From a virus: a stretch of DNA of 52,244 bases. The stretch is from IMG/VR virus record IMGVR_UViG_3300044210_000063, one strand, 5' to 3'. Positions 5,585-40,786 of the stretch are shown piece after piece (the stretch's first letter is position 1; each line of letters opens with the position of its first letter). The notes under the pieces are model-generated. The model did not search any database and was not told the DNA's origin. It saw only the letters and a program-made list of their open reading frames with translations. A program made the translations under genes and the position numbers.

Positions 5585-8500
5585 GTGACACAACCACGCA
5601 AGGAACAGGTTAAGAATCTTAAGACGAAATATAAGAAGTTCGTCCAAGCTGGGAGCCTTTACTTTGGCGGACAGGGGCAGCGCCAGGTAGTGTCTGGTGC
5701 GGATTATGCTGCACTTTTGGCAGCAACACGCACTGGGGTCGCTGGCGGCGCTGAAACTAGTGCACCTGCCGTTGTTTGGGGTGGATATGGGCCATATGCT
5801 GGACTTGCGTCTGGCATGGCTTTTACGATTGCAATGCCAGGCGTCAATGGTGGGCATCCAGTCACAATATCTATCACCCCGAGTGAAATCGTCATACTTG
5901 GAGGTTTGCCAACTGGCACAACCTCTCGTGTCGTACTTAGGATAAACACGGTCCTTTCTGGATATGGTGTGCCTGTTTCAGTTGGTTTGGGTGTGCAAGG
6001 CCAACTCGTACTTAGGTCTGCAAACACTTCTGGTACGACCTATGGGGACTCGGCTCAAATTACGTTAGCAGATTCGGTTCCCGGGACCCTCACGGCGCTC
6101 GGTTTCACGGCAGGTACATATAATGGTACTACCGCCCCGAAGCGGGGACTTATTACTACGAGCGAAGATCTTCTTGGTGGATATCTCCAGATAAAGACCC
6201 TTGATGGTGTGCCAGCTGAGGCCTATTCGAATCAGTTGGTGCATATGTATGCCTACCAGATGGATCCGCTGTATAGGCCTGGACAACCTGCATATGTACG
6301 GGTTAGACAGGCTTCTGCTTCGTCTGCGATCGCTGAATACTGGCGTACGGGACCAACTCCTCCGTCAATCGTGACAGGGCAGGCTGGTCAGATGTCAAAC
6401 TTCTCTTCAATCACCCCAGGGGAGAATATTACAATCTCCATCACGTGGGAGACAGGAGGACCCACTACCAGTTTTAGTGTGGTTTTTGGTACTGTCACTA
6501 GTCTGCAGGATGTTATTAATACGATTAATAACTCTTATTCGTTCACGACTATGGGAGATTATAACGTTAGGTCAACTAACGCGGTCGTGATGTGGAAAGT
6601 GCCTCCGCCATATACCTTCTCCAGTGATGATTCATTTTACATATCGTTTAATGATAACCCAACCAGGGTGCATGTGAATCCTCCGGGTGGAGTATACTCA
6701 GCATTGGCTTTGGATAATTCGGTTGCTCCGGTTGGGTATATTTGGGACCTCATCAATAATGTGTACGGTCTCGGTGCGGAAGGTGGTGTCATCCATTTCG
6801 ATGGTGTTAGTACTAACATCGGTCTTAGCGGATTGTGGATGGCATTCGAGAGTTATAGAAGTGATGGTACTGGCTCTATCACCATTTATCCTGGCGATCA
6901 TAGTGGTGTGCCAAATGGCACTTGGATGGGAACTCTGGAGCGCATAGGACTGACGCCTGGCAGATATGTAGGAAGTATGATTGCTGCCAAGTGGGGTGAT
7001 GGTACTGGCGACGAGATTATATTTTCGCTGCCTACTGCTAGGCCAGGTGCAACGCTGTCAATTACTGGACTCACAGGTACTCTTAATAAACTTGGTCTCG
7101 CTGGGCCAGTTACGGTTTCGTCGAACGCACGAGGTCTGCAACGAGTTCCGGTTCCTACAGGTCAGGTGCTGCTGCCTGAAATGGTTGAATTCTCCGAAGA
7201 ACCGGATAACTATGATGTAGAGGTACAGAGCTTTGACACTCCTGCTACTCCGCCACCCATACTGCCTACTGACGGTGTGCTGAACGCACTTAAGAGTATA
7301 CTTGGAACGGATGGTAAGCTTAATTCAGCGCTGCTACCCTTGATTGGGGAATTTCTGAGCCTTAAAGAACTGAAGCTTGGCGATGGTCTTGTAGGTTCAG
7401 GAGGTCAGCTCAGGCCGCGTGTGCAGACGACACACGATCCAGTCACCGGTCCTGTGCTGTTGCATTCTGCAATGACGAGTATCACTTCTAACGGGAGTGG
7501 TGGCTCTTCTGGTGAGATCGTGCGGGTCTATGCACATAATGGGTGTGCTTGGATCACATCAAATGCTGTTTGCACCGGAATGGTTGGCAGCGTCCCGCAG
7601 TGGCAGGCTGATTATGTAGCGGCCTCCACGATCCTAGAATGGGATCGTGGTAAGATTGCTATTGGATATATTGCGTCTGCGGCTTTGCCACATACATGGG
7701 CGCATACGGGATGGAGTCGCAACCTTAAGATGAATCCATATGGGGCGGCTGAGACGCTATCAAATGGTGCTGTATTTGGAGCGGAAATTCTGAAGCTCGG
7801 TGAAGGTCTTGTTGGTACCGATGCACATGTGCTAATACCACGTATTGAAGCTGCAGCGCCACCTCAGGATTCTAACCGTGAAATGTTGTTGCTTGAGGTG
7901 GCAAGCTCAGATCCAGCAGCACCGGTTCAGGGTATTCGGATTTATGCATATGTATATTCTCCCGCTTATCCAGCAGAGAACCGGTCATATCTCCGTTTTA
8001 CTTTCAATGCAAGGCAGGGCCCTGCCATAGTCTGGCAGAAGGATGTAAATGATAAAATCGCTACATCCGTCAAAATCGGGTTCGATGTTCTACAGGCGGA
8101 AACACGTGCTGCCGCCAATAATGGGACTTGGACTGTATGGGATGAAACCCCTGTAATTCTGGATTGGCGGGGTCATAACTACTATTTCATGTGGGACGCC
8201 CGGATCACCAGGACTCTTATGCTTGGTGAAGAGCTTGCATCAGCAGGTACATACGATGTAGAGCGTTTGGCAACATCGAGAGTTGATCCAGACCTCGGTA
8301 CTACCCGTACTTTAATGTGGCAGTCTCCTACGGTCTGGTCTGGTAGTATAAGTGGCCCAGATACAGTTTGTTCACCGCCGTTGCGCATTTATTTCTGCTG
8401 CAATGCATATGTGAATAACATCCCGGCAAATGGATTTGTGCTCACAAGCAATGCAAGATGGAATGCACATACAGATCGTTGGGAGGCTGACAATGCGCCA

Positions 8501-9145
8501 TATCCGGCATTCGCATGGATGTTTGGACAAACCATTGATCAAATGGGTAGTGGTTCTATAGCACTACTTACCAAAAAGAATACGCCACTGTCTAGTTGGT
8601 CTGATCAGCTTGATTTTGGTGTAACAGGATGGTCTACCGCCGATTGGATGCATCATCCTACATACCCATCTTCCACAATGAGTGGGTTTGTTAGCCAAGA
8701 CGGTGGCTTTACAGTGAAAGCTCCTCAGGCTGGTAATTATTCTTCAAACCCACCTGCAGACTGGCCTGTTGTTTTGAATGCTGTACTTGCCAAGACTATG
8801 GTAAAATCTTGGGGAGCTACCAATCTACCTATACCAGGCATGGGCAGCTCATGTGTCATCAGGGACGGGTATAATTATTACACCGCGTCGGAAATTGGGG
8901 TCGGGTTTTTTCATCTTGGCTATCGCCGTACGCTTGATACTACACCTGAGACTCCTACAGTTCTCCTTACTGTTGGCAACCGCACAGGAGCAGGTGTATA
9001 TGGATCAAGTGCTTCCCCATTTGTGGCCCAAAGTCTAGGTACTGAGTTTACTGCATGTATACTGGATACTGGTGGTGGAGGTGGATTGTTCCTTGATGCT
9101 GTACGGTTAAATCACGTGACCTATAATCAGCAATCCAATAACTGA
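5585..9145 (+). CDS. second very large Gly/Thr/Ser-rich protein (1186 aa); putative virion structural/fiber protein
   Basis: GTG start with AAGGGTG upstream. Internal duplicated motif LKLGDGLVGSGGQL / LKLGEGLVGTDAHVL. Composition similar to the preceding ORF. Confidence 0.8.
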   Translation: MTQPRKEQVKNLKTKYKKFVQAGSLYFGGQGQRQVVSGADYAALLAATRTGVAGGAETSAPAVVWGGYGPYAGLASGMAFTIAMPGVNGGHPVTISITPSEIVILGGLPTGTTSRVVLRINTVLSGYGVPVSVGLGVQGQLVLRSANTSGTTYGDSAQITLADSVPGTLTALGFTAGTYNGTTAPKRGLITTSEDLLGGYLQIKTLDGVPAEAYSNQLVHMYAYQMDPLYRPGQPAYVRVRQASASSAIAEYWRTGPTPPSIVTGQAGQMSNFSSITPGENITISITWETGGPTTSFSVVFGTVTSLQDVINTINNSYSFTTMGDYNVRSTNAVVMWKVPPPYTFSSDDSFYISFNDNPTRVHVNPPGGVYSALALDNSVAPVGYIWDLINNVYGLGAEGGVIHFDGVSTNIGLSGLWMAFESYRSDGTGSITIYPGDHSGVPNGTWMGTLERIGLTPGRYVGSMIAAKWGDGTGDEIIFSLPTARPGATLSITGLTGTLNKLGLAGPVTVSSNARGLQRVPVPTGQVLLPEMVEFSEEPDNYDVEVQSFDTPATPPPILPTDGVLNALKSILGTDGKLNSALLPLIGEFLSLKELKLGDGLVGSGGQLRPRVQTTHDPVTGPVLLHSAMTSITSNGSGGSSGEIVRVYAHNGCAWITSNAVCTGMVGSVPQWQADYVAASTILEWDRGKIAIGYIASAALPHTWAHTGWSRNLKMNPYGAAETLSNGAVFGAEILKLGEGLVGTDAHVLIPRIEAAAPPQDSNREMLLLEVASSDPAAPVQGIRIYAYVYSPAYPAENRSYLRFTFNARQGPAIVWQKDVNDKIATSVKIGFDVLQAETRAAANNGTWTVWDETPVILDWRGHNYYFMWDARITRTLMLGEELASAGTYDVERLATSRVDPDLGTTRTLMWQSPTVWSGSISGPDTVCSPPLRIYFCCNAYVNNIPANGFVLTSNARWNAHTDRWEADNAPYPAFAWMFGQTIDQMGSGSIALLTKKNTPLSSWSDQLDFGVTGWSTADWMHHPTYPSSTMSGFVSQDGGFTVKAPQAGNYSSNPPADWPVVLNAVLAKTMVKSWGATNLPIPGMGSSCVIRDGYNYYTASEIGVGFFHLGYRRTLDTTPETPTVLLTVGNRTGAGVYGSSASPFVAQSLGTEFTACILDTGGGGGLFLDAVRLNHVTYNQQSNN

Positions 9146-9157
9146 GGCATCTTACTC

Positions 9158-9490
9158 ATGAGCAACAAGCCGCCAAAGGCATCAGGACTGACATTGGTTT
9201 TTGAAAGCTTCAAACTACCTGCGCAGGGAACGCAACCTGAAATCGAGGTTGAAGCTGCAGAAATTCAATTTCAGCCAGAACACGCTGGACACTGGTTCAT
9301 GGTACATCTAGCTCTGCAGGGTAATATTCCTGAGTATCGAGTGACTATTGGCCCTCAGGGTGCACCATCACTTGTACCTGATGCCGATGGCCTGTTGGGG
9401 ATGGTGGCTAATGGGATCATATCTTTAGATGGTACGAGCATCGAACGTCTGCAGGGTGTGTCCCTACCGAGTGTATCCCTACCAATGTGA
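9158..9490 (+). CDS. hypothetical protein (110 aa)
   Basis: ATG with TGAGG 8 nt upstream; first gene of a tightly packed plus-strand run. Confidence 0.5.
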   Translation: MSNKPPKASGLTLVFESFKLPAQGTQPEIEVEAAEIQFQPEHAGHWFMVHLALQGNIPEYRVTIGPQGAPSLVPDADGLLGMVANGIISLDGTSIERLQGVSLPSVSLPM

Positions 9491-9502
9491 GGGAGAAGTA
9501 GC

Positions 9503-9664
9503 GTGGCAGCACAAGTAAAATGGCATCAAGTAAAACCCAACCAGACTGTGGACCTGGCATCCTTGCGTGATAAGACATGGCAGCAACTTAAGCCAGCGGA
9601 GCGCGAGGCTGTGCTCAAGATACTCGCTGAGGAGGCAGGACTCGTAAAGTCAGAAAAACGATGA
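9503..9664 (+). CDS. small hypothetical protein (53 aa), absent from the ORF track (<60 aa)
   Basis: GTG at 9503 preceded by GAGGGAGAAG (strong SD) at 9489-9498. Its stop TGA overlaps the ATG of the next gene (ATGA at 9661-9664). Confidence 0.45.
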   Translation: MAAQVKWHQVKPNQTVDLASLRDKTWQQLKPAEREAVLKILAEEAGLVKSEKR

Positions 9665-10176
9665 CATCTGAAGCTCCTGCTTCTGAGAAAAAATGGTATA
9701 AGGTTCTGTGGGCCTTTACGCTGAAATACCCACTAGCGATTGTGGGAACTATATTCCTAGTTGCGCTTGCCATTTTCTTGATTATCTTTGGACAGAAGTT
9801 TCAAATCAGAGGGTTGCTTGGACGGCTATGGGGCAGGAAGCCCGTAGTTGATCCAAATGTTCGAGTTATTCCTCCACCAGGACGAGTTGACACTGGTGGC
9901 GTACTAATTCCTGCAGGCAAATCCGACGATCTTGGGTATGTCCAATCGCCGGTGCAGGTTGTCATCAAGGATCCGGGTGTTTTCGACGATCCAAATATTA
10001 TAATCGTCAATCATCCAGAAAAAGGTGACATTGTCATTCCGTTGCCGACTGGTGTGAAGAATGAGGACGTAAAGCAGGTAGTTGAAATTGAGCCTAATGT
10101 TTATCAGTTGTCAAATAATGACAAACCGTTGGTGAACGCAGGCTCTTTGCTTGATGAGCTCGAGAAGAAACCATGA
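9661..10176 (+). CDS. membrane protein with a single N-terminal transmembrane helix
   Basis: Hydrophobic segment LKYPLAIVGTIFLVALAIFLIIFG after a short charged N-terminus. ATGA overlap with the upstream gene. Confidence 0.6.
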   Translation: MTSEAPASEKKWYKVLWAFTLKYPLAIVGTIFLVALAIFLIIFGQKFQIRGLLGRLWGRKPVVDPNVRVIPPPGRVDTGGVLIPAGKSDDLGYVQSPVQVVIKDPGVFDDPNIIIVNHPEKGDIVIPLPTGVKNEDVKQVVEIEPNVYQLSNNDKPLVNAGSLLDELEKKP

Positions 10177-21617: not shown

Positions 21618-22658
21618 TTATTGTGTTCGGGTCTCGAGCTCTTCCACGAGTTCGTCCAGCAGCTTCTTCGCACGGGAAGTCATCGTTTTTGGTAATGCCA
21701 CTGTGATCACAATGCGTACATCTCCGCACTGACCGCCCGTGGTGGGGCGTACTCCCTGGCCTGAGATGCACATTTCGTCGCCTGGTTGTGTACCAGGTGG
21801 GATCTCGATGGTAAGACCTCGTCCATTAGGTAGCGATACTTCGAGCGGGCCTCCGATAATCGCGTGTTGTAGACTAACACATCTGGTTGTAATAAGGTCT
21901 TGGCCAAGTCGTGACCATGCAGAGTGGTTCGATGCTTCACGAATTTTCACTGTAATATAAAGATTTCCAGGTGGCTGTCCTGGAACGCCCATTCCTGCAA
22001 GACGTAATCTGGTACCATCGACGATGCCAACCGGCACTGTGACTATGACTTCGCGTTCGAACTTACACATTCCGGTACCATTGCATGACTGGCATGACTT
22101 TGTTCTTTGTTTGAAGCTATCACATAATGCGCATATCTTAGCATTATGACCATAACCTCCACAGGTATTACACGTTGTTGCTTGGCCACCAAACATACGG
22201 CCAGTTCCAGCACATTGTAAACAACGAATTTTCTTGTTCGATTGTACCTGCATTTGTTTTTTACAACCGGTGACCGATTCCTCAACAGTAATGTTGAGCT
22301 GGGCTTCTATATCATCGTCAGTCTGTGTCACTGGGCGGGCGGAATAGTTATTACGCCTGCGAAACATATCAGCAATCGGATCTCTATGTCGAAACACAGT
22401 GTCGAACAGATCGTCTTGAAGTCCCCAAAATTTTCGGGATTCATGTATGGCATTCGTTCTATCGAATATATGCCGTTTACCTGGATCAGTTAGAAGAAGA
22501 TAGGCTTCTTGCGCTTCTTTGAATCGTTTTTCTGCATCAGGATCATCCGGATTTCTGTCTGGGTGATGCTTTATTGCAGCCTGCCGCCAGGCACGTTTGA
22601 CTTCCTCGTTAGAAGCACCTCGGCTGATACCGAGCACTTCATATGGGTCCTTAGTCAT
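21618..22658 (-). CDS. dnaJ: DnaJ (Hsp40) type I co-chaperone: J-domain, CxxCxGxG zinc finger, C-terminal domains
   Basis: N-terminus DPYEVLGISRGAS...HPDRNP...KRFKEAQEAYLLLTD. Zinc-finger repeats CLQCAGTG, CNTCGGYG, CQSCNGTG. C-terminal beta domains. Confidence 0.9.
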   Translation of the reverse strand: MTKDPYEVLGISRGASNEEVKRAWRQAAIKHHPDRNPDDPDAEKRFKEAQEAYLLLTDPGKRHIFDRTNAIHESRKFWGLQDDLFDTVFRHRDPIADMFRRRNNYSARPVTQTDDDIEAQLNITVEESVTGCKKQMQVQSNKKIRCLQCAGTGRMFGGQATTCNTCGGYGHNAKICALCDSFKQRTKSCQSCNGTGMCKFEREVIVTVPVGIVDGTRLRLAGMGVPGQPPGNLYITVKIREASNHSAWSRLGQDLITTRCVSLQHAIIGGPLEVSLPNGRGLTIEIPPGTQPGDEMCISGQGVRPTTGGQCGDVRIVITVALPKTMTSRAKKLLDELVEELETRTQ

Positions 22659-22695: not shown

Positions 22696-24150
22696 TTGGG
22701 TTTGGTGTATTATCAAAATACAATAGTGAGATTTGAGACTGGTTCACCGTATCATGGTTTCGTATACCAGGGGCCTCCGATAGACATAGGTCCGAGGGCT
22801 ATGCGGAAACTGCTATTCAGATGCCAGTGTGGCAAGGATAAGGAACTATATATCGGGGCAATTACCAAGGGAATGCAAAAAACATGCGGGGACTGCCGGA
22901 AGGTATGGGTGCGTCCGGGTGATCAATATCACCGGTTCATTTATGCAGGAGAAGCCTCATATCTGGCTCCCAACAGCTCTAAAAAGGCATTGTTCAAATG
23001 CCAATGCGGCAAGGTCAAATCAATCAGAATAAACAGTGTTACTAAAGAGCAAACTACCAGATGCGGCGCGTGCAACTTAGTGAAGCTTGATCCGGAGGAT
23101 CAATATTATTCTTTTGTCTATATAGGAGAACCAATACGAGTTCACGCGCATGGTACTTCTCGGCTGATGTTTCGGTGTCGATGCGGTAAGACTGTCACAT
23201 TGCGTATGAACGAGGTGACTTCTGGCCATCGAGTTTCGTGCGGGCACTGCAATGATTTTGTGCTGGACTATGGTGATAAATATTGTGGGTTCGTGTATGC
23301 GGGCAAACGAATTATAGTTTCGCCACGTAGCCACCAGCAACTCGATTTCAGGTGTAAATGCGGCACTATCAAGAAGATCAAGCTATGGGAGATATCTGAC
23401 GGAATAACTCGCACTTGCGGTCGTTGTAGCTATATTCAGTTGGATCCAGGCCAGTCATACTGTGGGTTCGTATATATCGGAAAACCAATCTGGCTCAGTA
23501 AATGGAGCCACCAACGGCTTTTGTTCCGGTGTAAATGTGGACAGCCCAAAAGCATCATGTTGTCGAGTTTGACGTCCGGCAATACAAAGACATGCGGTGC
23601 ATGTCGTGGAACAGTATATGAATGGTATGTTAAGAATCGTGAAATGTTGGAAGCTATGCGTGCTCCAATTACTTTGGATAGTCTGCCTCAAGGTGGAGTA
23701 ATATTCACTTCACCTATTACGAACATCGCTAAATCTACGCCTGCAATCTGTCCGGCATGCGGTGCATCTTACAAGCCAAGATTTAGCGATGTTCGTCGTG
23801 GACGATCACTGACTTGTGGGTGTGTATATAATAGAATATCATCCTATAACTATGAGATTGCTAGTCTTGTAGCTTCAGTCGGGTTCAGAGTCATGATGGA
23901 GTTTAAGCTTGGCAAGTATTCATATGATATACATGTGGAAGAGACCCCCATCCTTATTGAATATGATGGAAAGAAATGGCATGATACGCAATATGCTGCC
24001 GATCTTGATCTGCGCAAGTCAAAATTGGCAGCTGAGCATGGATATGAATTGATTCGGATTACAGAGGCTGATTGGCGGGACCATCCCGCAGAAACACAGA
24101 CTCATATTTTAAAGGTACTGTCACAGTATGCTGCTCCAACAACTGGATGA
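22696..24150 (+). CDS. paralog A of a mobile-looking family: 5 tandem Cys4 zinc-ribbon modules + Zn-ribbon + Vsr/DUF559-like PD-(D/E)xK endonuclease domain
   Basis: Five ~60-aa repeats F(R/K)CxCG-x12-VT(S/K)G-x3-(T/S)CGxC-...-FVY(A/I)G. Then CPACG...LTCGC and YDIHVEETPILIEYDGKKWHD...DLRKSKL...GYELIRI. Its 3' end overlaps the polA start by 23 nt. Confidence 0.8.
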   Translation: MGLVYYQNTIVRFETGSPYHGFVYQGPPIDIGPRAMRKLLFRCQCGKDKELYIGAITKGMQKTCGDCRKVWVRPGDQYHRFIYAGEASYLAPNSSKKALFKCQCGKVKSIRINSVTKEQTTRCGACNLVKLDPEDQYYSFVYIGEPIRVHAHGTSRLMFRCRCGKTVTLRMNEVTSGHRVSCGHCNDFVLDYGDKYCGFVYAGKRIIVSPRSHQQLDFRCKCGTIKKIKLWEISDGITRTCGRCSYIQLDPGQSYCGFVYIGKPIWLSKWSHQRLLFRCKCGQPKSIMLSSLTSGNTKTCGACRGTVYEWYVKNREMLEAMRAPITLDSLPQGGVIFTSPITNIAKSTPAICPACGASYKPRFSDVRRGRSLTCGCVYNRISSYNYEIASLVASVGFRVMMEFKLGKYSYDIHVEETPILIEYDGKKWHDTQYAADLDLRKSKLAAEHGYELIRITEADWRDHPAETQTHILKVLSQYAAPTTG

Positions 24151-26989
24151 CCGTAAGGACATCATCCGAGATTGGATGGTGGATTATAAATTCCACCTAG
24201 TTCAGACCGTTCTTCAGCTGAAGAAGCTGGTGGATTATTGCATACAACGAGGACTTTATGCCCTCGATCTCGAGACTACTGGAGTTGACAATCGAGTCTA
24301 CCAAGACGAATATTTTGAAGACGGTATCATAACTCGTCATGGTATAAGGACCATTGATAGAGTGGTTGGGGTCTGTCTATCATTCGACGGGACAAATGGA
24401 TATTATGTCCCGCTTTCTCATGAACCGGACGATTCTGGAAATTTGCCATGGGATGAATCTTGGGATGAGATCCAGAGGTTGGTGTGGAGCCAAGCACGTG
24501 CAATCTTCCATAATGCTAAGTTTGACTGCGAGTTCCTTTACCCTCTGACAAATAAGGACTTCTGGAAGAAGAATGAATATGAGGATACCTATCTTATGTC
24601 TAAGGTATCCTCACCGCTTAAAAGCCAGCCCAACGGTCTTAAGCCTCTATCCAAATTGCACTTCGGCATTGATATGATTGAGTTAGACGATCTTTTCTGT
24701 CCGGAGATGAAGATCCAACTCAAGCGTGAGAAGCAAGGATATAACTTTGGAGTACTTCATCCGCGAGAAGGTCTTGAATATGGGTGCTCAGACGGTATTT
24801 TTACTTATAAGTTATATTCAGTCCTGCGTGAAAAATTATCAGACACTGATCTACCTATTTACGATTTAGAAAAATCTTTCTGCAACATATTGCGTAAGTT
24901 AGAACGTAACCAGGTGCATGTTGATGTGGAGCGCCTAAATCAACTTGAGGTTGAGTGTCGCGCGGAATTGCAGCGTGTCGGTGATGTCATTCGTGGGATG
25001 ATTGAGAAGCGTAGTCATAACACTGGTAAATGGCTGACGCTCAATGTTGGATCTGTTCAGCAGTTATCATCAGCACTTATTACAGATCCTGAGGGTCTGA
25101 AGCTCAAGCCGACAGCAGAGATGATCGCAGAGGCAGGAGGAACTGGCGAATGGGATAGCGGCGGCGGTGGTGGTGGTGGTGGTGACGATGACGATGAAGA
25201 TGGGGATGAGGAGGAGAAAAAGAAATACTCGTTGAAAGATGAAGCTCTGAAATCTTTGCATCGAGCATATGCTGATCGTCTATCGGTGCAACGCCCTGGT
25301 GTTGTAGACAAAGATGGAAAACCAAAGCTAGATAGTCTTTTTGAACTCGTACTTGAATACCGACATTACGAGAAGATGCTCGGGTCGTTTTTAACAAAGT
25401 TATCGCGAGCTGTAGATCGGTATGGGAATGTACGACCAAATTTCAACCAAATGGGGACAGATACCGCGAGACTCTCGTCAAGGGCTGGCAAGATTGAGGA
25501 TGGATATTCTGGTATCAATTTTCAAGGAATCCCACGGGATTCCGATGAGGATAAACCAGAATTATTCAAGCAAATCAGGACGGTAATAATTCCGCGCGAT
25601 GGTTGGATACTGGTAAAGCTTGACTTCGCTGGCGAGGAACTTCGTGTTGTTACTAATCTTTCGGGTGATCCGATCTGGACAGATTCATTCTTGAACAAAG
25701 ATGGTGACGTGCATTCAATTACAGCACGTACACTGTTCGGCAAGGATGAAGTTAATAAAGACGAGCGTAATCGCGGTAAACGCTGCAATTTCGCGTTTAT
25801 TTATGGTGGGGGTGCAGGCGCGATTCAGCGCAACGTTGGTTGTTCCATTGAAGACGCCGGTAGGCACATGGAGAATCTGCGACAGGCTGTACCCGTGCTA
25901 ATGGGGTATGTTGATCATCAGAAGAGATTCGCGCATAAACATAAGTGCATTTTTACAGCTTATGGTCGGCGTGTTCCCATTCCAATGATAGATTCGCCAA
26001 TACGCGCCTTGCGTTCTAAGGCGGAGCGGTGCGCTATTAATTACACAATCCAGTCAACCTCTGCAGACGTCTTGAAATACGCAATGTGTTTTGTTGATAA
26101 GAACATCCGGGCTCTAGGCTGGGAGGACCGGGTTCGATATGTGCTAACCGTACATGATGAGGTTGTATATGAGGTTCGACCGGAATACCTCATGGAGATT
26201 GTACGTAAGCTTGATGAATGGATGACCTTTCCATGGAAGCTTCCGAAGCCACATGGCCGCGACTGGGTGGTGCCGCTTCTCACCGAGCCCGGGATTGATT
26301 GTAACTGGAAGGCTCGCTATGACTATTTCGAGATGGTGGACGGCACGCCAGTGAAGCCATCGGAGATTGGCCCAGATGGGGAGTACAAGGGTAAGCTCAA
26401 GAAGGGCCGCTACTTTGCCGATGGGCGCATCTACCAGGAGCCTCCGGACTTCCTGAAGCCGTGGATCCACCGCCTTCGGCCCCTTTCGGCCGGTCCTGAG
26501 CCTGCTCTTCCGTCCCATGAATCGCTTCCGGCTGAGCCCGGAGCCGCTGTCTTGCCTGATTTGCCGCCTTCCAAACCCGCAGAACACGGCTCATCTGGTC
26601 CGATCGATGAAGCCCCGCTCAGTAAACTCTTGCCAGCGGAGCCTATCCTTGGCTCCCTGAGCACTCTGTCGCTCTCCACGGATCCGCCCCCGCCGCTCCC
26701 CCCGCCGCTCCCCCCGCCGCTCCCCCCGCCGGCCTCTCCGCAGCCAAAAAAGGTGCAGGACAATGCCGTTACGAATACTTCGGGTGAGACCGTCTTACGC
26801 TGGACCATCCGGTCCGTGCTGAACGACATGGCGATTCGCAAGCTCAAGGCCGCGTGCCTGTTAGCACCGGGCAACATGTCGTTGCGCGTGGTACTGCCCG
26901 ATGGTAGCGTCCTCATTCAGGAGAAGAGCATGCCGTTGGTCGACAAGGATTGCTTTCTCTCGTATGCACGCTTATTGGGTATCGGGTGA
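24128..26989 (+). CDS. polA: family-A DNA polymerase with N-terminal 3'-5' proofreading exonuclease, acidic/poly-Gly insertion and Pro-rich C-terminal extension
   Basis: Exo I YALDLETTG. Motif B RGKRCNFAFIYGGGAGAI. Motif C LTVHDEVVYEV. Insertion DSGGGGGGGGDDDDEDGDEEEKKK. About 270 aa follow motif C, including (PPLP)x3. Confidence 0.9.
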   Translation: MLLQQLDDRKDIIRDWMVDYKFHLVQTVLQLKKLVDYCIQRGLYALDLETTGVDNRVYQDEYFEDGIITRHGIRTIDRVVGVCLSFDGTNGYYVPLSHEPDDSGNLPWDESWDEIQRLVWSQARAIFHNAKFDCEFLYPLTNKDFWKKNEYEDTYLMSKVSSPLKSQPNGLKPLSKLHFGIDMIELDDLFCPEMKIQLKREKQGYNFGVLHPREGLEYGCSDGIFTYKLYSVLREKLSDTDLPIYDLEKSFCNILRKLERNQVHVDVERLNQLEVECRAELQRVGDVIRGMIEKRSHNTGKWLTLNVGSVQQLSSALITDPEGLKLKPTAEMIAEAGGTGEWDSGGGGGGGGDDDDEDGDEEEKKKYSLKDEALKSLHRAYADRLSVQRPGVVDKDGKPKLDSLFELVLEYRHYEKMLGSFLTKLSRAVDRYGNVRPNFNQMGTDTARLSSRAGKIEDGYSGINFQGIPRDSDEDKPELFKQIRTVIIPRDGWILVKLDFAGEELRVVTNLSGDPIWTDSFLNKDGDVHSITARTLFGKDEVNKDERNRGKRCNFAFIYGGGAGAIQRNVGCSIEDAGRHMENLRQAVPVLMGYVDHQKRFAHKHKCIFTAYGRRVPIPMIDSPIRALRSKAERCAINYTIQSTSADVLKYAMCFVDKNIRALGWEDRVRYVLTVHDEVVYEVRPEYLMEIVRKLDEWMTFPWKLPKPHGRDWVVPLLTEPGIDCNWKARYDYFEMVDGTPVKPSEIGPDGEYKGKLKKGRYFADGRIYQEPPDFLKPWIHRLRPLSAGPEPALPSHESLPAEPGAAVLPDLPPSKPAEHGSSGPIDEAPLSKLLPAEPILGSLSTLSLSTDPPPPLPPPLPPPLPPPASPQPKKVQDNAVTNTSGETVLRWTIRSVLNDMAIRKLKAACLLAPGNMSLRVVLPDGSVLIQEKSMPLVDKDCFLSYARLLGIG
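26690..26725 (+). repeat. 12-bp x3 repeat CCGCCGCTCCCC encoding (PPLP)3 in the polA C-terminal extension
   Basis: Seen directly, in frame. Confidence 0.8.
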
Positions 26990-28767
26990 AGCTGTTCGTT
27001 GTTAAAGGGGATAGGGCAGGGAGCCTGACATATGCGGGTGACAGGTCGGAGCTTAGCACGTGCAGCCTTAAGAAAGACCTGTTCCGGTGCGCATGCGGCA
27101 CGGTGAAACTTTTCCGTACTGCATATGCATACTCTGGCAGGAGCAAGACTTGCGGCGAGTGCCATGCACGGCCCGCCGAATGGTGGGATCGCAAGTTCGG
27201 CAGTCTCAGGCTGGCTGTTCCAGTCAAACTTCACGAGTTTTCAAACAAAAGAAAAGATTTTCGGTGCGACTGCGGCAGAGTATTGGCGCTCAGAGTAAGC
27301 CATGTTACGTCCGGACTGCAGCGGACGTGCGGCTGCTGCCAGCTCATGGGAGCGTCTTGGTGGGAAGCCAGCGTCTTCGGCCAGCTCCGGTTGGCTGTTC
27401 CTGAGGATTTGCACGTTGGGTCCAATCAAAAGAAACAATTCCTCTGCAGTTGCGGGCGAGTCAAACGGCTGCCGGTATATGCAGTGGTCGCGGGCCGCGT
27501 GAAGACCTGCGGCGAGTGTAATGTGAAACCCGCCGAATGGTGGAAAGGCAGAGTATTCGGTCGCCTATCAATAAACCAGCCCGAGCCACTGACTTTTGGA
27601 TCCCATGAACGCCGCATGTTCCAGTGCGGCTGCGGGAATCAGTGCATAGCACGGGTGAACTTGGTTACAAGCGGCAAAAAGCTGTCCTGCGGGAGGTGTC
27701 GGGACCAGGTGCATGGTTGGTACCAAGACAACCTTTCCAAGTTGGCTGCTATGCGGTTCCCCATAGCTCCGCAGGACATGCCGATCGGCGGTCCGAGGCC
27801 GCTGGAAACGATTTTAAACAGAAGGAGCCCGTTCCGGGCTGTGTGCCCCATATGTCAGTCCGAGTATGCGCCTCGGTGGGAGTTTATCAAGAGAGGAATA
27901 TCACTTACATGTGGATGTGCTGGCGGGGTCTCGTCGACCCAGAATCGGGAGGTGGCCGGGTTCATCCGTCAGCTTGGGGTTGATCTAGTTACGGAATATC
28001 CGGTCGGGAACAAGCGGTTCGACATATTCGTGCCGTCCTGCAATCTATTGATTGAGTTGCAAGGGTTGCACTGGCATTCCCAGATCGGAGCGCGGCAGCG
28101 AGACCGAGAGAAGTATGGGGTGGCTGTACAGGCTGGGTATCAGTTCATGGCCTTCTTTGAAGATGAGTGGAGACATGCGCCGGAGAAGGTGAAGGCTTTG
28201 ATTCACAACCGGCTGGGTTTAGTTCACAGCATCAAGCTGCGTCCCCCTCAGTGCGGGATCCACCCGGTCCCCTCACCGGAGGCCGATCCCTTTTACGACA
28301 GGTTCCACTACATAGGGCCCTGCAGGCCCAAGGTCTCCTATGGGGCTTTTCTCCGGGATCGCCTGGTGGCTTGTATCTCCTTCTCCCACCCGACCAGGCA
28401 GTCCAGGCACCCATGGGAATTGGTAAGGATGGCTTCAGATCCGGAGTATAGGGTCCATGGGATCTGGAGCAAGCTTCTGAAGATTTTCTGCACTGAGTAC
28501 AGACCGGAATCCATAGTCTCGTTCTCGGATAACCGCCTTTTTTCAGGTGGAGTCTATGAAAGAATAGGCTTCTCCTACGATGGGGACGTTCCTCCGGATT
28601 ACTACTGGGTGAAGGGACAACGCAGGTTCCACAAGTCCGGCCTCAGGAAGAAGGGAGAGGAGAGGGTTTCCGGGCTCACCGAGGCCCAGCTCAGAGAAGC
28701 TCAGGGGTACCGGAAGATATGGGACCTTGGGAAGAAGAGATGGGTTTTTCGTTGGGCTGACGATTAG
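26950..28767 (+). CDS. paralog B: 4 zinc-ribbon modules + Vsr-like nuclease + C-terminal GNAT-like domain
   Basis: Repeats FRCACG...TCGEC etc. RFDIFVPSCNLLIELQGLHWHS. C-terminus LVRMASDPEYRVHGIWSKLL...FSDNRLFSGGVYERIGF resembles GNAT motifs A/B. The whole gene is GC-rich relative to the background. Start uncertain; the ORF-track TTG overlaps polA by 40 nt. Confidence 0.8.
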   Translation: MLSLVCTLIGYRVKLFVVKGDRAGSLTYAGDRSELSTCSLKKDLFRCACGTVKLFRTAYAYSGRSKTCGECHARPAEWWDRKFGSLRLAVPVKLHEFSNKRKDFRCDCGRVLALRVSHVTSGLQRTCGCCQLMGASWWEASVFGQLRLAVPEDLHVGSNQKKQFLCSCGRVKRLPVYAVVAGRVKTCGECNVKPAEWWKGRVFGRLSINQPEPLTFGSHERRMFQCGCGNQCIARVNLVTSGKKLSCGRCRDQVHGWYQDNLSKLAAMRFPIAPQDMPIGGPRPLETILNRRSPFRAVCPICQSEYAPRWEFIKRGISLTCGCAGGVSSTQNREVAGFIRQLGVDLVTEYPVGNKRFDIFVPSCNLLIELQGLHWHSQIGARQRDREKYGVAVQAGYQFMAFFEDEWRHAPEKVKALIHNRLGLVHSIKLRPPQCGIHPVPSPEADPFYDRFHYIGPCRPKVSYGAFLRDRLVACISFSHPTRQSRHPWELVRMASDPEYRVHGIWSKLLKIFCTEYRPESIVSFSDNRLFSGGVYERIGFSYDGDVPPDYYWVKGQRRFHKSGLRKKGEERVSGLTEAQLREAQGYRKIWDLGKKRWVFRWADD

Positions 28768-29048
28768 CCGTGGCTCTGCCCGGTGCCTGGGCGGACAGTC
28801 GTGGCTGCCTCCAGCTGGCGCTCGAAGTCATTAGCCGCTTGTTCATATCCAGCCGCTGCTGCTACTAGTACGGCCAGACCGTGCTGCACTATAGCTTGTT
28901 GTTCCTCATCCAAACTTTTGCTCAGTAGCAGATGTCGCTCACGAACAATAAGGTCGTGTATCCCCTCGCAAATTTGCCGGGCTCCAAGCCCCTTTGCCAC
29001 AAGCAGAATGTCGCATTTCAGTTCTTCAGGCAGTTCGAACTCATTCAT
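28764..29048 (-). CDS. small hypothetical protein (94 aa)
   Basis: Occupies the gap between paralog B and the dCTP deaminase. The alternative + strand reading here is low-complexity and not credible. Confidence 0.4.
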   Translation of the reverse strand: MNEFELPEELKCDILLVAKGLGARQICEGIHDLIVRERHLLLSKSLDEEQQAIVQHGLAVLVAAAAGYEQAANDFERQLEAATTVRPGTGQSHG

Positions 29049-29093
29049 TAATTATAAGACACAGTACTTTTCGAGAGTGGGTGTAAAGTTGGA

Positions 29094-29763
29094 AATGCAA
29101 TACGGCGTACTCTCTGGCAGTGAAATTCTTCGGACCATCAAGACTGGCGAAATAGTAATTGATCCGTTTGAAGTAGACAACATCAAGTACGAAGATCGTA
29201 TCAACTCTGCATCATACGACCTGACCCTTGGTCCACATGTGGCGGTGTATTCATCCGTAGTAACTGCTGACTGGGGATGTCGTATAGGCGGTGTGCCTGG
29301 TGAGCGTGTACGCGTGGACTGTCAGCATTTGAAGCTTCCACCGGTGCCCTGTCTTGATGCAGCACAGGAAAATCCTGTGGAGCGTTATGAAATGGATAGT
29401 CGTGGGTTCATGCTTATGCCAGGCATAGGTTACTTAATGCACACAGTTGAACGTATTGCTACAAACAAATATATTCCGATTATCGATGGTAAATCATCAA
29501 TTGGTAGGCTTTTTTGCTTTGTACATGTAACGGCGGGTCTTGGTGATCCTGGGTTTGACGGCCAGTATACGTTGGAGGTATTGGTTACGCATCCACTAAT
29601 CGTATACCCAGGCATGCGATTCTGCCAGATTCGGTTTTTTACTATTGTTGGGGAGGCACAAAATTACCAAAAGGCTGGACATTATACAGGCAAACTTGCT
29701 ATAGGCCCAGTCCCATCGCGCTCATGGACACAATTTTCAGTGCATGAAAATAATCACAAATGA
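29094..29763 (+). CDS. dcd: dCTP deaminase (dUTPase-fold)
   Basis: GKSSIGRLFCFVHVTAGLGDPGFDGQYTLEVL matches E. coli Dcd [31 protein letters not shown]. The ORF-track start 28783 adds about 100 aa of Ala/Ser/Cys-rich sequence, judged spurious; ATG 29094 gives 223 aa. Confidence 0.8.
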
Positions 29764-30110
29764 TTCAATGTGATTTCCCAGAATGTGAAGCTGAGGCTGA
29801 CTGTATGTTGATTTTACATACTCCAGCTGGAATATACCCAACTGGAGTATACCCAGCTGGAGTATGCCCAGCTGGGTATTCAGCATCTTCAAATAGACAA
29901 ATAACGCGGGCAATAGCTCGACATACGGAATCTTGGCTTCCACACGAGATCATATTTGTTCGCTGTGTTGCTCATGAAAACCCAATACTTCCGGGAACAC
30001 CGCTAACTAAAGCTCTGACATCAATACCCTTCCACCTTAGTAAATTGACTCTTGCTATGGGAATGAAAATTTACGGGACCCAATTGGCTAAGGAGGTTCA
30101 TGACACCTGA
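29760..30110 (+). CDS. hypothetical protein with PAG(I/V)YP tandem repeat
   Basis: ATGA overlap with dcd; 15-bp x4 in-frame repeat at 29823-29882. Confidence 0.5.
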   Translation: MIQCDFPECEAEADCMLILHTPAGIYPTGVYPAGVCPAGYSASSNRQITRAIARHTESWLPHEIIFVRCVAHENPILPGTPLTKALTSIPFHLSKLTLAMGMKIYGTQLAKEVHDT

Positions 30111-30642: not shown

Positions 30643-31447
30643 CATCAATGGTATACCAGCGTTGCTTTGAATCTTGGCACAACTTTGGGGTCCTGATCTC
30701 GCATCTGTGCACCCCGATAGCCGCGATTTTACGTGCCAGCAATGCTCCAAAGAGTGCATGTCTGTGGCATGCTAGATTTGGGGATTGAAATACGCCATCA
30801 ACTTGCTCACGCCCAACTTCGATCGCTATAGTTTGGCCTTCTGAACACGGCTCTACAGTAATACCGTGTGCTGCCAGGCATTCTGTGGCAATTGTCACGA
30901 TTGAGGATGGATCACGTATGTGCTCATATGCTGGTCCTCCTCGAATTAGGGCAATCCTGGTCCGTTCTTTCTCCTGATTAAGAAGCGCCAAGGCGGAACT
31001 AATTCCAGGATGCAAAATGGGTTGGGATTTATGTATCTGACCGTCTTCTCCTATGAAATCAGTAGGGCGGAATACGGACTGATCAGTAAGAGGAAGTACA
31101 GCAAGGCCTGTGCTTTGGTCTACAATGTATACTTTAGAGCCGGTTGATACTAATTTATCATGCTCTTCCAGGATAACATCTACTGCTGTTTCATACACAT
31201 CTTCTGTTCCTGGATAGACAATATCAATACAAGCCTCGATTAACTGTTGGCGACGTTGATCACCTTTAGTCAATGCTGCCTGAGCAGCATCATTCTCTGT
31301 CAACATACGACGAATGGCAAGAAGATAATCTCGTTGCACTCGTTTTTCAGCTTCATAGGCAGTGTCAGAATCTCCGACCACACGTGCTCCAACGAGGATA
31401 GACTGAGGAGTATCCTCGTTGGAGCACGTGAGAATTTTAGTATTCAT
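30614..31447 (-). CDS. hypothetical protein (277 aa); vague resemblance to two-Cys racemase/isomerase-like folds, not assignable
   Basis: Long clean ORF; ATGA overlap with the upstream minus-strand gene. A 20-bp perfect inverted repeat lies in codons 2-18. Confidence 0.6.
   Translation of the reverse strand: MNTKILTCSNEDTPQSILVGARVVGDSDTAYEAEKRVQRDYLLAIRRMLTENDAAQAALTKGDQRRQQLIEACIDIVYPGTEDVYETAVDVILEEHDKLVSTGSKVYIVDQSTGLAVLPLTDQSVFRPTDFIGEDGQIHKSQPILHPGISSALALLNQEKERTRIALIRGGPAYEHIRDPSSIVTIATECLAAHGITVEPCSEGQTIAIEVGREQVDGVFQSPNLACHRHALFGALLARKIAAIGVHRCEIRTPKLCQDSKQRWYTIDVIVSMAAEA
31381..31430. repeat. perfect 20-bp inverted repeat with 10-nt spacer (CACGTGCTCCAACGAGGATA-GACTGAGGAG-TATCCTCGTTGGAGCACGTG)
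   Basis: Seen directly. Both strands therefore encode a TCSNED..SILVGAR peptide. Lies 15 nt inside the 5' end of gene 30614..31447(-). Confidence 0.85.
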
Positions 31448-31953
31448 TTGCTATCTCCGAATGTATAGCTGCTGCCTGGTTCGAGTACGACCTCTCCCTG
31501 AGGGAGCACCATGCCTTGTGTGAATGGAGTGTTTGCGAGGCTAGGTGTAGGCCGAGGATCTTGGGTTTGTATGACTGATCCGAGTTCTTGCTGTGGAGTC
31601 GGAGTGATCAAAGTCGGAGTGATCAAAGTCGGAGTGATCAAAGTCGACTTTGATGGAGATTGCATTTCAGCTGGTCTTTGTGCACTAGATAGAAACCGTT
31701 TGGCCCGGATAGCATCGTATGCAGGGTCTGTTTCTGCAGCTCGAGGCGGAGCATCAAAAAGATCTTTCCGCCATGTGGCCAATCTTTGCTGCAATGCACT
31801 ATTTTGTCCAGCAGCTCGTGAGCAATCCGCTCGTAGACATCTTAAACAATATGCTTTGGAGAACTCATCTAATGGGACCGTTTTGTGCTGCCCAATTAGA
31901 GCAGGATCCGATATGCAATCTTTCAGATAATCAACGCTAGCCATTGTTTGCAC
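31444..31953 (-). CDS. hypothetical protein with (TLITP)x3 repeat
   Basis: 15-bp x3 tandem repeat at 31594-31648, in frame. Confidence 0.5.
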   Translation of the reverse strand: MQTMASVDYLKDCISDPALIGQHKTVPLDEFSKAYCLRCLRADCSRAAGQNSALQQRLATWRKDLFDAPPRAAETDPAYDAIRAKRFLSSAQRPAEMQSPSKSTLITPTLITPTLITPTPQQELGSVIQTQDPRPTPSLANTPFTQGMVLPQGEVVLEPGSSYTFGDSK

Positions 31954-36722: not shown

Positions 36723-36968
36723 CTATTTTCTGTGAACGGTCTTGACTACTTCTTCACGAATACGCTCAAGACCAAGTATTTCCGGGAAAGATAGTGAATT
36801 GCTTTGGATGCCATTAGCATGTTGGATCACTAACTTGTCGCCGGGTGACAGTCCTAGGCGAGTAAGAAGCCGCGCAATCAGAACCTCTTCGTCGATATAA
36901 GGACTATCCCACGGAGTGAACTTCAACGATTCGTTGTGTTGATTGGCTTCTTGACTTGAAATTTTCAC
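36723..36968 (-). CDS. hypothetical protein (81 aa)
   Basis: ATGA-coupled downstream of paralog C. Confidence 0.45.
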   Translation of the reverse strand: MKISSQEANQHNESLKFTPWDSPYIDEEVLIARLLTRLGLSPGDKLVIQHANGIQSNSLSFPEILGLERIREEVVKTVHRK

Positions 36969-38563
36969 AGCTTTGAGTTTCTTTTTTGAAGGAGCCTTGT
37001 TACTAATGGGCCGCCATAATACCCAGCAAGGGCACGGGTTTCGACGATTTTAGCTTTTTCGCTAACTACCCTTATTAAATCAATATCAGTGGTGTAGGCC
37101 AGAATAACAGCGTAAATCAAGCTATCGGCGATTTCGGACTCAATGGCGGCTTTCTTCGCTTCAACCGTGTCACCGTTCCGAATGGCTCGCAGTAGTGCAC
37201 CAGCAAGTTCGCCCGATTCACCGACGAGGCCTAAGGCATAATAAATGAATGGGTCGTTACCATATGCCGCGTCAGGATCCATATTTTTGACTCGACATAT
37301 AACATGGTGCGCATTGATAGCTGCAGTAACAATATCTTCGTAGGAGTGTCTTAGTTCGTGGATTAAGGCATCTCGCCGCTTTATTAATGCTGCCTCGGTT
37401 TCTTCTGGCAGGCTGATTTGCATGATTTCGCTGATTTCATCCAGTTTTGCCCTGAGTTCTGCCTTAGTTCGATAGCTTCGGCCGATTCGTTTTCGTGTGT
37501 CTAGCTCCAACAGGAGGCTCTGCATAACGCTTTTTTTATTATGTATCCAGTCGTTTTCCTCTATGGTGAGGAATTTCAGCCCACTCACTTCGGCCAAGAA
37601 CCGCTTCTTAGTGTTCCGCCTTCGCGCGTCGTTGGACCGGTTGAACTCGATAAGCGTTTGAGACTCGTTGACGAACATGTCATATTTATGTCCGTAGAGC
37701 TTGTGCTCAAATACCACTGAGTAGCCATGCGCAATAAGCTGGTCAGCGATGCGATAGCATGGTATGGGTATTTGGTAATCCGCACAGCCGCACGTCAGCC
37801 CATGGCCTCCTTTGAGCCTGCTGATGGACGGTGTGTAAATACTACCACAAATAGGACATTTTGCCTTGAATCCCTTTGAATTTGTTAATATGCGTCCGAG
37901 CGGAATTGGTCCACCGGGAGGGAAGTTTTTGGGCTCAACTGGTGCCCGTAACGCCTGCAGCGCTTGCCGATTCTTATTATACCAATTTCGCACTGTTCGA
38001 GAGCAATGTCCACAATTGCGGGTACGTCCGGAGGTCACTGACTGAATCGATATTTCTTTCTTGCTGCCGCAGTCACACAGAAACATCGTCTTTTGTTTAG
38101 CGTGGCGATTGAGAGCACGGGGTGTTTCCAGCCGAAGGCATCCAAACCGCTGACTAGTCCACCATTCTGGATCCATCTCGTTGCATCTGCCGCATGTCAC
38201 AATTTTGTTGTGTACTACGTCGTAGATGGCTATTAGTTGCTCTTTACCACAATCACAAACAAACAGTTCTCTATCTTTACTGCCAGTACTTAACTGTTTC
38301 GGATGCCTGAGTCGCAGTTGACCGAACTTCTGTGTGATCCACCACTCCTTTGGCATTATACTGCATTGTCCACATGACTTGGTTTGGCCACGGGTGACAG
38401 ACGACACTTGCACGGTTTTATGCTTGCCACATTCGCAGACAAACACATGCTTTGCATGCGAATGTGGATTTAAATCCACTGGATGCAAAATGCGCAGCTT
38501 GCCAAACTTCTGTAGCGCCCACCACTCCTTGGAGTGAACTGTAGCACGCTCTCTAATAGTCAT
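36965..38563 (-). CDS. paralog C: 3 zinc-ribbon modules + Vsr-like nuclease + C-terminal MazG-like NTP pyrophosphohydrolase domain
   Basis: Repeats FVCECGKHKT...SCGQC etc. YDMFVNESQTLIEFNRSNDARRR. C-terminus ALGLVGESGELAGAL...ESEIADSLIYAVILAY is MazG-like and replaces the GNAT-like domain of paralogs B, D and E. Confidence 0.8.
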   Translation of the reverse strand: MTIRERATVHSKEWWALQKFGKLRILHPVDLNPHSHAKHVFVCECGKHKTVQVSSVTRGQTKSCGQCSIMPKEWWITQKFGQLRLRHPKQLSTGSKDRELFVCDCGKEQLIAIYDVVHNKIVTCGRCNEMDPEWWTSQRFGCLRLETPRALNRHAKQKTMFLCDCGSKKEISIQSVTSGRTRNCGHCSRTVRNWYNKNRQALQALRAPVEPKNFPPGGPIPLGRILTNSKGFKAKCPICGSIYTPSISRLKGGHGLTCGCADYQIPIPCYRIADQLIAHGYSVVFEHKLYGHKYDMFVNESQTLIEFNRSNDARRRNTKKRFLAEVSGLKFLTIEENDWIHNKKSVMQSLLLELDTRKRIGRSYRTKAELRAKLDEISEIMQISLPEETEAALIKRRDALIHELRHSYEDIVTAAINAHHVICRVKNMDPDAAYGNDPFIYYALGLVGESGELAGALLRAIRNGDTVEAKKAAIESEIADSLIYAVILAYTTDIDLIRVVSEKAKIVETRALAGYYGGPLVTRLLQKRNSKL

Positions 38564-40060: not shown

Positions 40061-40786
40061 TTGATAGACCGTACCCGTGTGACCATCACCCTTACGTTCC
40101 AGATTCCGTCCACAAACGTGCATCCGGTTGCCGCAGTGATGGACCTTACTGATGACCGGCCTTTGATTGGTTTGAGTCCTCCGCAGGTCGATGGTCTTGA
40201 CCTGCGGGAAGACGATCTAGTACTTAGGATCGTGCCTGATCAGATTGAGACGGGACCGTGGGTAGCTCATGCGGGTTTATGGACTCGTCCTGACTGGTTT
40301 AATGCCAGCGCTTATGCGGAAGGAACGATTCTCACCTGTAATCGTGGCACCAAATACCGCGGATCGGCATGGGCTATGCGGGGGACTATTCCCGGTCTTG
40401 ATATTGTGGGCACTGATTTCTTATGTGCCGATCCATTCTCAGGTCCTACAGGTCCAACAGGACCTCAGGGGTATCCGGGGACTACTGGAGGTGTAACTGG
40501 ATCAACGGGGCCACAGGGTGCCACTGGATTACAAGGAGATCCAGGTGTTACAGGTGCCACTGGACCACAAGGTGCCACTGGACCACAAGGTGCCACTGGA
40601 CCACAAGGTGCCACTGGACCACAAGGTGCCACTGGACCACAAGGTGCCACGAGCATATTACCGAGTGGAAGCGCTGGCGCTATTCTTTACAATGATGGTT
40701 CACAGTGGATTATACTGCCCTCTGGGGCTTCTGGAGCTGTACTCACCGCTCAGGGGGCCACGGGGCCAATTTGGGCGTTCTTGTAG
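40061..40786 (+). CDS. collagen-like triple-helix repeat protein (putative fiber)
   Basis: [29 protein letters not shown]...(GATGPQ)x5, Gly-X-Y over about 80 aa. 18-bp x5.5 DNA repeat at 40553-40651. Confidence 0.8.

Follow-up and report, generated by a model that had tools for sequence, protein, structure and literature searches.

We analyzed a 52,244-nucleotide (nt) stretch of viral DNA, IMG/VR record IMGVR_UViG_3300044210_000063 (hereafter the window), in which the 3' end of polA, a gene for a family A DNA polymerase, lies in an island of raised guanine-plus-cytosine (GC) content together with a gene for a Hef-like endonuclease, which we refer to as paralog B. At this locus a dnaJ-like gene (21618-22658, minus strand) is followed by paralog A, a Hef-like endonuclease gene without a GNAT domain (22696-24150, plus strand; 484 amino acids (aa); Pfam MTES_1575, E = 5.5e-11), and by polA (24128-26989, plus strand; 953 aa; Pfam DNA_pol_A, E = 1.5e-64, the domain ending at aa 728). 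Next come paralog B (26950-28767, plus strand; 605 aa when read from a TTG codon at 26950) and orf94 (28764-29048, minus strand), a small resident gene convergent with polA. The dCTP deaminase gene dcd (29095-29763, plus strand; Pfam DCD, E = 6.1e-34), which is syntenic in related phages, forms a right flank of native composition, with a GC content at the third codon position (GC3) of 0.39. The mean GC3 of 12 resident genes was 0.413, giving a baseline of about 0.41.

The island was the compositional extreme of the window. GC content was 57.3% at 26230-29050 versus 47.3% in the remainder, and when the 52-kb sequence was scanned in every window of 2821 nt (mean 47.8%, standard deviation (SD) 2.4%), the highest value, 57.4%, belonged to the one starting at 26220, the island thus lying approximately 4 SD above the mean. 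All six of the GC-richest non-overlapping 500-nt bins fell within 26001-29000, where the profile ran at 54.6-61.4% over a background of roughly 42-52%. Maximum-likelihood change points in base composition placed the island edges at 26243 and 28888, and GC first dropped to 39% at 29000-29099.

A preliminary description of this DNA had reported an island of 60-65% GC between about 26230 and 29050. The compositional shift was confirmed and is strong, and the left edge had been placed correctly, whereas the right edge had been set slightly too late or too sharply. The amplitude was overstated, as the island averages 57% and values of 62-67% are confined to 26400-26900, which encodes the linker and terminal domain of the polymerase. 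The contents had been listed correctly as the last ~250 codons of polA (~253 in our analysis), the whole of paralog B and the open reading frame (ORF) at 28764-29048 on the minus strand. A (PPLP)3 motif noted in the linker also proved real; it is encoded by a 12-nt tandem repeat at 26687-26731 (plus strand), for which Tandem Repeats Finder gave 3.8 copies of (PPLP)n coding sequence with 100% matches.

The approximately 2.7-kb island therefore has three parts: the last ~257 codons of polA, paralog B, and the 3' end of orf94. No further credible ORF was found in it. There was no integrase or transposase/recombinase gene within the island, which thus does not have the makings of an integrase- or transposase-borne element, and its flanks held no direct, inverted or terminal repeats beyond chance-size matches. 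Rfam searches identified zero RNA families within the window, including no group I or II intron, and promoter- and terminator-like sites were no more frequent than in shuffled sequences.

The endonuclease gene between polA and orf94

The likelier start of paralog B is a GTG codon at 26986, which overlaps the polA stop codon as GTGA, and its own stop overlaps that of orf94 by 4 nt, so that the gene fills the gap between the two convergent genes exactly. The predicted protein consists of about five zinc-finger repeats of the DUF4379/CapR type (aa ~40-325), a nuclease domain (aa 331-425; nt ~27940-28224) and a GNAT/Mom-like domain (aa 440-600; nt ~28267-28749). Pfam matched the nuclease to MTES_1575 (aa 333-422, E = 2.9e-9), a Vsr-like, PD-(D/E)xK nuclease of the MTES_1575/DUF559 type, and the C-terminal domain to Acetyltransf_1 (GNAT; aa 450-541, E = 8.4e-5), at 23.3 bits versus a cut-off of 20.7. 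In PHROGs, phrog_559 matched over the full length of the protein (E = 1.3e-62; profile positions 90-599 of 607), and phrog_3339, annotated as "homing endonuclease", matched with E = 1.4e-59. Searches of isolate phages with tblastn matched aa ~290-600 to Hef-like homing endonuclease genes (E down to 2e-35) of Campylobacter phages (10-11 places per genome), Bacillus phages AR9 and PBS1, and Klebsiella phages.

The sole sequence match of paralog B in the PDB was 3r3p, the catalytic domain of I-Bth0305I (E = 0.15), which was aligned over the whole domain. D358 and H376 of paralog B were aligned with the sites of the D196A and H213A mutations in 3r3p, and the aspartate of its RD(R)EK motif with D222. 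E349, D358, E369, H376 and the triplet E404-D405-E406 were at least 95% conserved in 107 homologs, and as all of these residues are kept in paralog B, the gene does not look decayed. Conserved acidic and histidine residues are the mark of the Vsr-like/EDxHD family, to which the Hef-type enzymes belong (PMC3239194); the link of paralog B to the Hef of phage U5 rests on database annotations and on that same report.

Judged from these sequence comparisons, paralog B is most likely a free-standing Hef-like (Vsr/EDxHD-type) homing endonuclease gene. It joins a nuclease of this family to DNA-binding modules, it is present or absent at a fixed site, and its neighbors are undisrupted, as expected of a free-standing homing endonuclease gene. 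It is not embedded in an intron or intein, being intergenic, with polA and orf94 both complete and no match to a group I or II intron.

Zinc-finger repeats (CapR/DUF4379/DUF723) combined with a Vsr-like nuclease have been described before in phage endonucleases (PMC12350094, PMC10055350), in which the fingers lie as "beads on a string" N-terminal to the nuclease, as they do in paralog B. DUF4379 treble-clef zinc fingers were matched in homologs of paralog B and in paralog D, another Hef-like gene of the window; the CxC/CxxC repeats of paralog B itself gave no Pfam match to DUF4379 at E <= 0.01. I-Bth0305I differs in being intron-encoded and in having NUMOD/helix-turn-helix DNA-binding modules, whereas paralog B is free-standing and has about five zinc-finger repeats and a large GNAT/Mom-like domain. 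The group II intron examples are likewise intron-borne, unlike paralog B.

Mean identity of the 107 homologs to paralog B was 64% in the GNAT/Mom-like domain, 42% in the nuclease and 31% in the zinc fingers, and in the family this C-terminal domain contains long invariant blocks, such as SFSDNRLF; S524, D527, N528 and R529 of paralog B are among the invariant residues. A precomputed match to Mom (PF25680) exists for many family members. Two homologs of paralog B (P0018 and P0074) scored 24.7-25.3 bits, below the cut-off of 27.1, and paralog B itself matched only the generic Acetyltransf_1. The domain could add a second catalytic activity, for example by acylating DNA or nucleotides so as to protect the carrier genome or mark the target, in which case paralog B would be a cut-and-modify weapon among co-infecting giant phages rather than a purely selfish gene. 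We consider this distinctly unlikely; if it were true, the island would be a trace of rivalry between phages that share one host yet differ greatly in GC content.

The polA extension, orf94 and related loci

Searches with polA of viral and metagenome contigs identified about 43 members of one clade (L001-L006, L083-L120 and L129), which are large uncultured phages with contigs of up to 436 kb and a locus GC content from 30% (L112) to 67% (L090, L111). The GC3 of their polA genes spans 0.17-0.95, and the protein is ~70% identical. Gene order in the clade is orf209, orf167, dnaJ (minus strand), polA, a small antisense ORF, usually dcd, orf180 and orf277 (minus strand). In one member (L088) a Cys-rich ORF (8060-8731, plus strand) is situated between dcd and orf180; an HNH-like motif was seen in it by eye, and Pfam gave a weak double-zinc-ribbon match. 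There are GC-rich members of the same synteny, for example L084, with 57.8% GC and a polA GC3 of 0.74. A Hef-like gene 3' of polA was absent from all ~35 relatives with sequence downstream of polA. The relative L004 has a GIY-YIG and NUMOD3 endonuclease gene (~9030-9845, plus strand) in the same junction between polA and the small ORF, which indicates that the junction is a recurrent landing site.

The composition of polA breaks within the gene. GC3 was ~0.43 in codons 1-697 and 0.71 thereafter (0.70 for codons 701-953), with a change point at codon 697 (nt 26219; support interval about 26183-26260). The log-likelihood ratio of this change point was 29.9, while 2000 permutations reached at most 10.75. 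The 3' ~770 nt of polA (26219-26989, plus strand) thus form a putative co-conversion tract. In 32 relatives of 30-67% GC, polA GC3 was even along the gene, and the 3'-minus-5' difference was -0.02 +/- 0.046; only the window deviated, at +0.30 (z = 6.9). The change point coincides with a block of DNA at 26202-26225 (plus strand) that encodes VRKLDEWMT and is the fourth most conserved polA 24-mer among the relatives. This block is a candidate recombination junction and possibly the target region of the endonuclease.

A break of this kind might be given local causes, namely the composition of the Pro-rich linker or GC-biased repair at a recombination hot spot near endonuclease genes. The linker is indeed rich in Pro and Ala, with a GC of 0.61-0.69 at codon positions 1 and 2, and the GC3 of the other endonuclease paralogs (0.42-0.49) is slightly above the resident 0.41. 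However, GC3 was 0.70 in codons 721-760 and 0.80 in codons 881-920, conserved segments in which the GC of positions 1 and 2 was merely 0.47-0.49; proline content therefore explains the linker and not the shift. Local causes are further countered by the uniformly high GC3 of paralog B (0.65 overall and 0.53-0.75 along its entire length), by the lack of GC richness in the other four paralogs (A, C, D and E), and by the relatives L004 and L006, in which endonuclease genes beside polA are accompanied by no local GC3 shift. Local causes thus appear highly unlikely.

The C-terminal extension of the polymerase comprises a conserved block (aa ~697-790), a Pro-rich disordered linker (~791-884) and a terminal domain (~885-953). 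AlphaFold2, run with a 9-sequence alignment, predicted a small confident domain at aa ~730-785 (predicted local distance difference test (pLDDT) score 86-90), a disordered linker, and a beta-beta-alpha-beta-beta-alpha domain at aa ~880-953 (pLDDT 71-90). Comparison of the predicted extension with the PDB by Foldseek gave no E below 0.06, with a root-mean-square deviation of ~9.5 Å for the top matches, and neither the extension nor orf94 matched Pfam or PHROGs. Every relative with a complete polA (~919-1030 aa) carries the same extension, in which a low-complexity linker that varies among them joins the conserved block to a conserved terminal domain of ~70 aa. By this distribution the extension is ancestral to the clade and was not brought by a cassette. 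It is probably functional, since its retention across genomes of 30-67% GC argues for a function. The terminal domain of the window was the second most divergent among 33 clade polymerases, which fits an unsampled donor and is no proof of one. Elsewhere in the polymerase, an acidic, Gly-rich low-complexity insert, GGGGGGGGDDDDEDGDEEEKKK, at aa ~344-365 (25150-25220 in the window) precedes the polymerase domain (Pfam start at aa 403) and recurs, in varying form, in every relative.

Homologs of orf94 were found directly 3' of polA in 29 loci, abutting the end of polA or, mostly, overlapping it tail-to-tail by 10-80 nt. With a profile made from the small antisense ORFs of three relatives, orf94 was the best match among the window's 642 six-frame ORFs (E = 6e-6), and tblastn matched it to L089, L099 and L084, with E down to 4e-16 (L089). 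The family shares the motif L..RE..LL ... AAA. From its presence across these loci, orf94 is a conserved resident core gene and not cassette cargo. Given the tail-to-tail overlap of the two genes in relatives, an endonuclease gene inserted here must restore the end of at least one of them. In orf94, the final ~40 codons (28767-28888) had a GC3 of 0.60 versus the 0.41 baseline (p = 0.012) and may be a short right-hand co-conversion tract.

These comparisons bear on the proposal of the preliminary description that a cassette carrying paralog B may have replaced or extended polA at its 3' end, the antisense ORF being counted among the cassette's contents. In line with that proposal, a GC-rich composition is shared by paralog B, the extension and a portion of orf94. 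Nevertheless, the extension is found in each relative whose polA is complete, in a gene of similar length, and none of them has paralog B there, so the cassette did not add it; the same extension with no adjacent element is what the description had itself named as speaking against its proposal. Together with the orf94 homologs 3' of polA in 29 relatives, this makes the delivery of a new C-terminal domain and an antisense gene by the cassette scarcely credible. What survives is replacement of the polA 3' end by homologous DNA, that is, co-conversion. Recent horizontal acquisition, also proposed, holds for paralog B (GC3 0.65 versus 0.41, at a site that is empty in ~35 relatives) and fails for the antisense gene as cargo.

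Proposed homing into the polA/orf94 junction

Based on the above, we interpret the island as the footprint of a free-standing homing endonuclease gene that homed into the junction with co-conversion of the 3' end of polA, and we put the probability of this reading at roughly 70%. We observed the island, the identities of its genes, the presence and absence of endonuclease genes at the site, the ancestral extension and orf94, and the discontinuity at synonymous sites. The event itself would have begun with a co-infecting, GC-richer member of the clade that already carried paralog B at its polA/orf94 junction. The GC content of this donor would be about 52-58%, an estimate based on how polA GC3 varies with genome GC among the relatives. 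Its endonuclease would have cut the allele that had no such gene, probably within the conserved 3' part of polA, and the break would have been resected and then repaired from the donor. Along with paralog B, repair would have introduced flanking donor DNA, comprising ~770 nt of polA to its left and no more than ~120 nt of orf94 to its right. The resulting polA would be an in-frame chimera, with its first ~697 codons native and its last ~257 donor-derived.

Free-standing phage endonucleases typically cleave a conserved neighboring gene at a site hundreds of bases away from the endonuclease ORF, and the DNA between is co-converted (PMC2988022). The asymmetry of the two tracts (left, ~770 nt; right, no more than ~120 nt) suggests a cut in the 3' part of polA, and the cut site may adjoin the conserved block at 26.2 kb. 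The evidence for co-conversion is compositional, strong on the polA side and weak on the orf94 side.

The closest parallels are the T4-like SegF, SegG, SegB and MobE endonucleases (PMC2988022, PMC2330249, PMC2790892). Like paralog B, these are intergenic between conserved essential genes and sporadic among relatives; they have no terminal repeats, the neighboring gene carries a donor tract, as polA putatively does, and distant cleavage in that conserved neighbor is expected. They differ in nuclease family, being GIY-YIG or HNH enzymes where paralog B is Vsr/EDxHD-like, and the putative tract beside paralog B is visible only as a composition shift, donor and recipient differing by about 10 GC points in this reading. 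Paralog B also resembles the "HEG islands" (homing endonuclease gene islands; PMC10055350, PMC12350094), in which an essential gene is bracketed, as polA is by paralogs A and B, and a recombination boundary adjoins the nuclease gene. In ICP1-like phages, exchange boundaries that are set by endonucleases resemble those of the island (PMC10055350); the ICP1 nucleases are of the T5orf172 type and the exchanged block exceeds 10 kb, whereas in polA, the gene bracketed here, the exchange appears limited to the 3' ~770 nt.

The principal competitor is ordinary mosaic recombination, in which general homologous recombination swapped a 2.7-kb block between co-infecting clade members, the crossovers falling within polA and within orf94, and the endonuclease gene was simply carried along. 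This accounts for the composition data just as well, any homologous crossover would be favored at the left junction because the DNA there is highly conserved, and cleavage by paralog B is something that we infer. On the other side, the block is centered on an intact homing endonuclease gene with all family-invariant residues, the tract reaches a short way past the gene on each side, as break repair predicts (PMC2988022), and L004 has another endonuclease gene in the same junction. Moreover, an intein elsewhere in the window, also of homing type, shares the foreign GC3, while ordinary genes do not. We consider mosaic recombination unlikely.

The island might also be an assembly chimera, in which two related phages of unlike GC were joined within the conserved polA and the assembly switched back ~2.7 kb further on. 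The source is evidently an uncultured, metagenome-type sequence, and many clade members share a sample series (e.g., several Ga0315284 contigs). A nucleotide search of 24128-29763 against isolate phages gave no match, and the closest polA protein in the isolate-phage collection, from an uncultured 485-kb phage, was 34% identical; exact matching of paralog B, polA and the homolog P0074 likewise retrieved no source contig. A chimera would need two switches that kept synteny and left polA and orf94 in frame, and genomes with a GC3 of 0.43 and 0.71 would rarely share exact k-mers of misleading length. The polA protein is only ~70% identical among clade members. A donor phage with paralog B at this site would still be required. 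A chimera of this kind is very improbable.

Several results weigh against homing with co-conversion. The searches turned up neither a donor nor a close relative of the island: homologs of paralog B reached at most 48% identity over its full length, the closest ones lie in unrelated contexts with none beside polA, and the 3' part of polA gave 9 matches, none above 45%. A switch of nearest relative between the 5' and 3' parts of the polA protein was not significant, as the bootstrap interval includes 0 and controls trend similarly, and the trend of the 3' part toward GC-rich relatives was not used as evidence. The right-hand tract rests on 40 codons (p = 0.012) and in part reflects an Ala/Gly-rich composition. 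The Pfam nuclease score of paralog B, 37.3 bits, is under the gathering cut-off of 38.2, and its PDB match, at E = 0.15, is weak. We infer that paralog B is an active endonuclease, and likewise where it cuts, which way the DNA moved and from what donor; the source sequence is probably a metagenome assembly.

If homing with co-conversion is correct, the locus would be a clean natural case in which a homing endonuclease has rewritten a portion of an essential replication gene. Because donor and recipient would differ by about 10 GC points, the co-conversion tract is readable from synonymous sites and its left end can be placed within about 80 nt, which gives a concrete prediction for the cut site. 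It would also imply that DNA is still exchanged within a single uncultured clade of giant phages despite its GC range of 30-67%, and hence that its members share hosts or co-infect. The process itself is well known; it is unusually visible here, in a clade of giant phages that is poorly known.

Other homing elements and repeats of the window

The window holds five Hef-like endonuclease paralogs (A-E) in 52 kb, with A and B bracketing polA. Multiple copies per genome also occur elsewhere in the Hef and Hef-like family, as in the Campylobacter phages (10-11 places per record). Paralog A has a native composition (GC3 0.42) and is 32% identical to paralog B; the relative L006 has an ortholog of it, 48% identical, at the same site between dnaJ and polA. 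Paralog C (36965-38563, minus strand) has a differing C-terminal region with a weak MazG-like match (E = 0.008), whereas paralog D (47020-48723, minus strand) and paralog E (51849-52244, minus strand; cut by the window end) both align through the GNAT/Mom-like region of paralog B. None of paralogs A, C, D and E is GC-rich, their GC3 being 0.42-0.49. Paralog E had been described as GC-rich, which was not the case, as its visible part has 45.7% GC and a GC3 of 0.44. At synonymous third positions, 40 sites had G or C in paralog B and A or T in paralog E, versus 9 with the reverse (p = 9e-6); between paralogs B and D the corresponding counts were 80 and 33. Of the five paralogs, only B looks recently acquired.

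Whether paralog B is a recent copy of paralog E was also considered, and this origin was rejected. The 82% identity between them falls in the domain that is strongly conserved in unrelated homologs too, and about half of the synonymous sites differ, with a directional bias.

A DnaB-like helicase gene (13854-16727) contains the intein, at about 15120-16450, with a LAGLIDADG endonuclease domain. Helicase codons 411-915, which bracket the intein, had a GC3 of 0.58 versus 0.36 in the remainder of the gene, and the intein is the window's second homing element of foreign composition. It had been called GC-rich earlier, and this was borne out to a moderate degree (54.5% GC).

The third GC bump of the window is a gene for a collagen-like repeat protein (40061-40786, plus strand). 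Its GC was 0.63 and 0.61 at codon positions 1 and 2 and 0.41 at position 3, which points to amino-acid composition and not to a foreign origin. Two 15-nt tandem repeats were also observed. One (29818-29879, 4.1 copies) is located just 3' of dcd, within a mechanically listed ORF at 29760-30110, and the other (31597-31646, 3.3 copies) encodes TLITP repeats in the ORF at 31444-31953 (minus strand).

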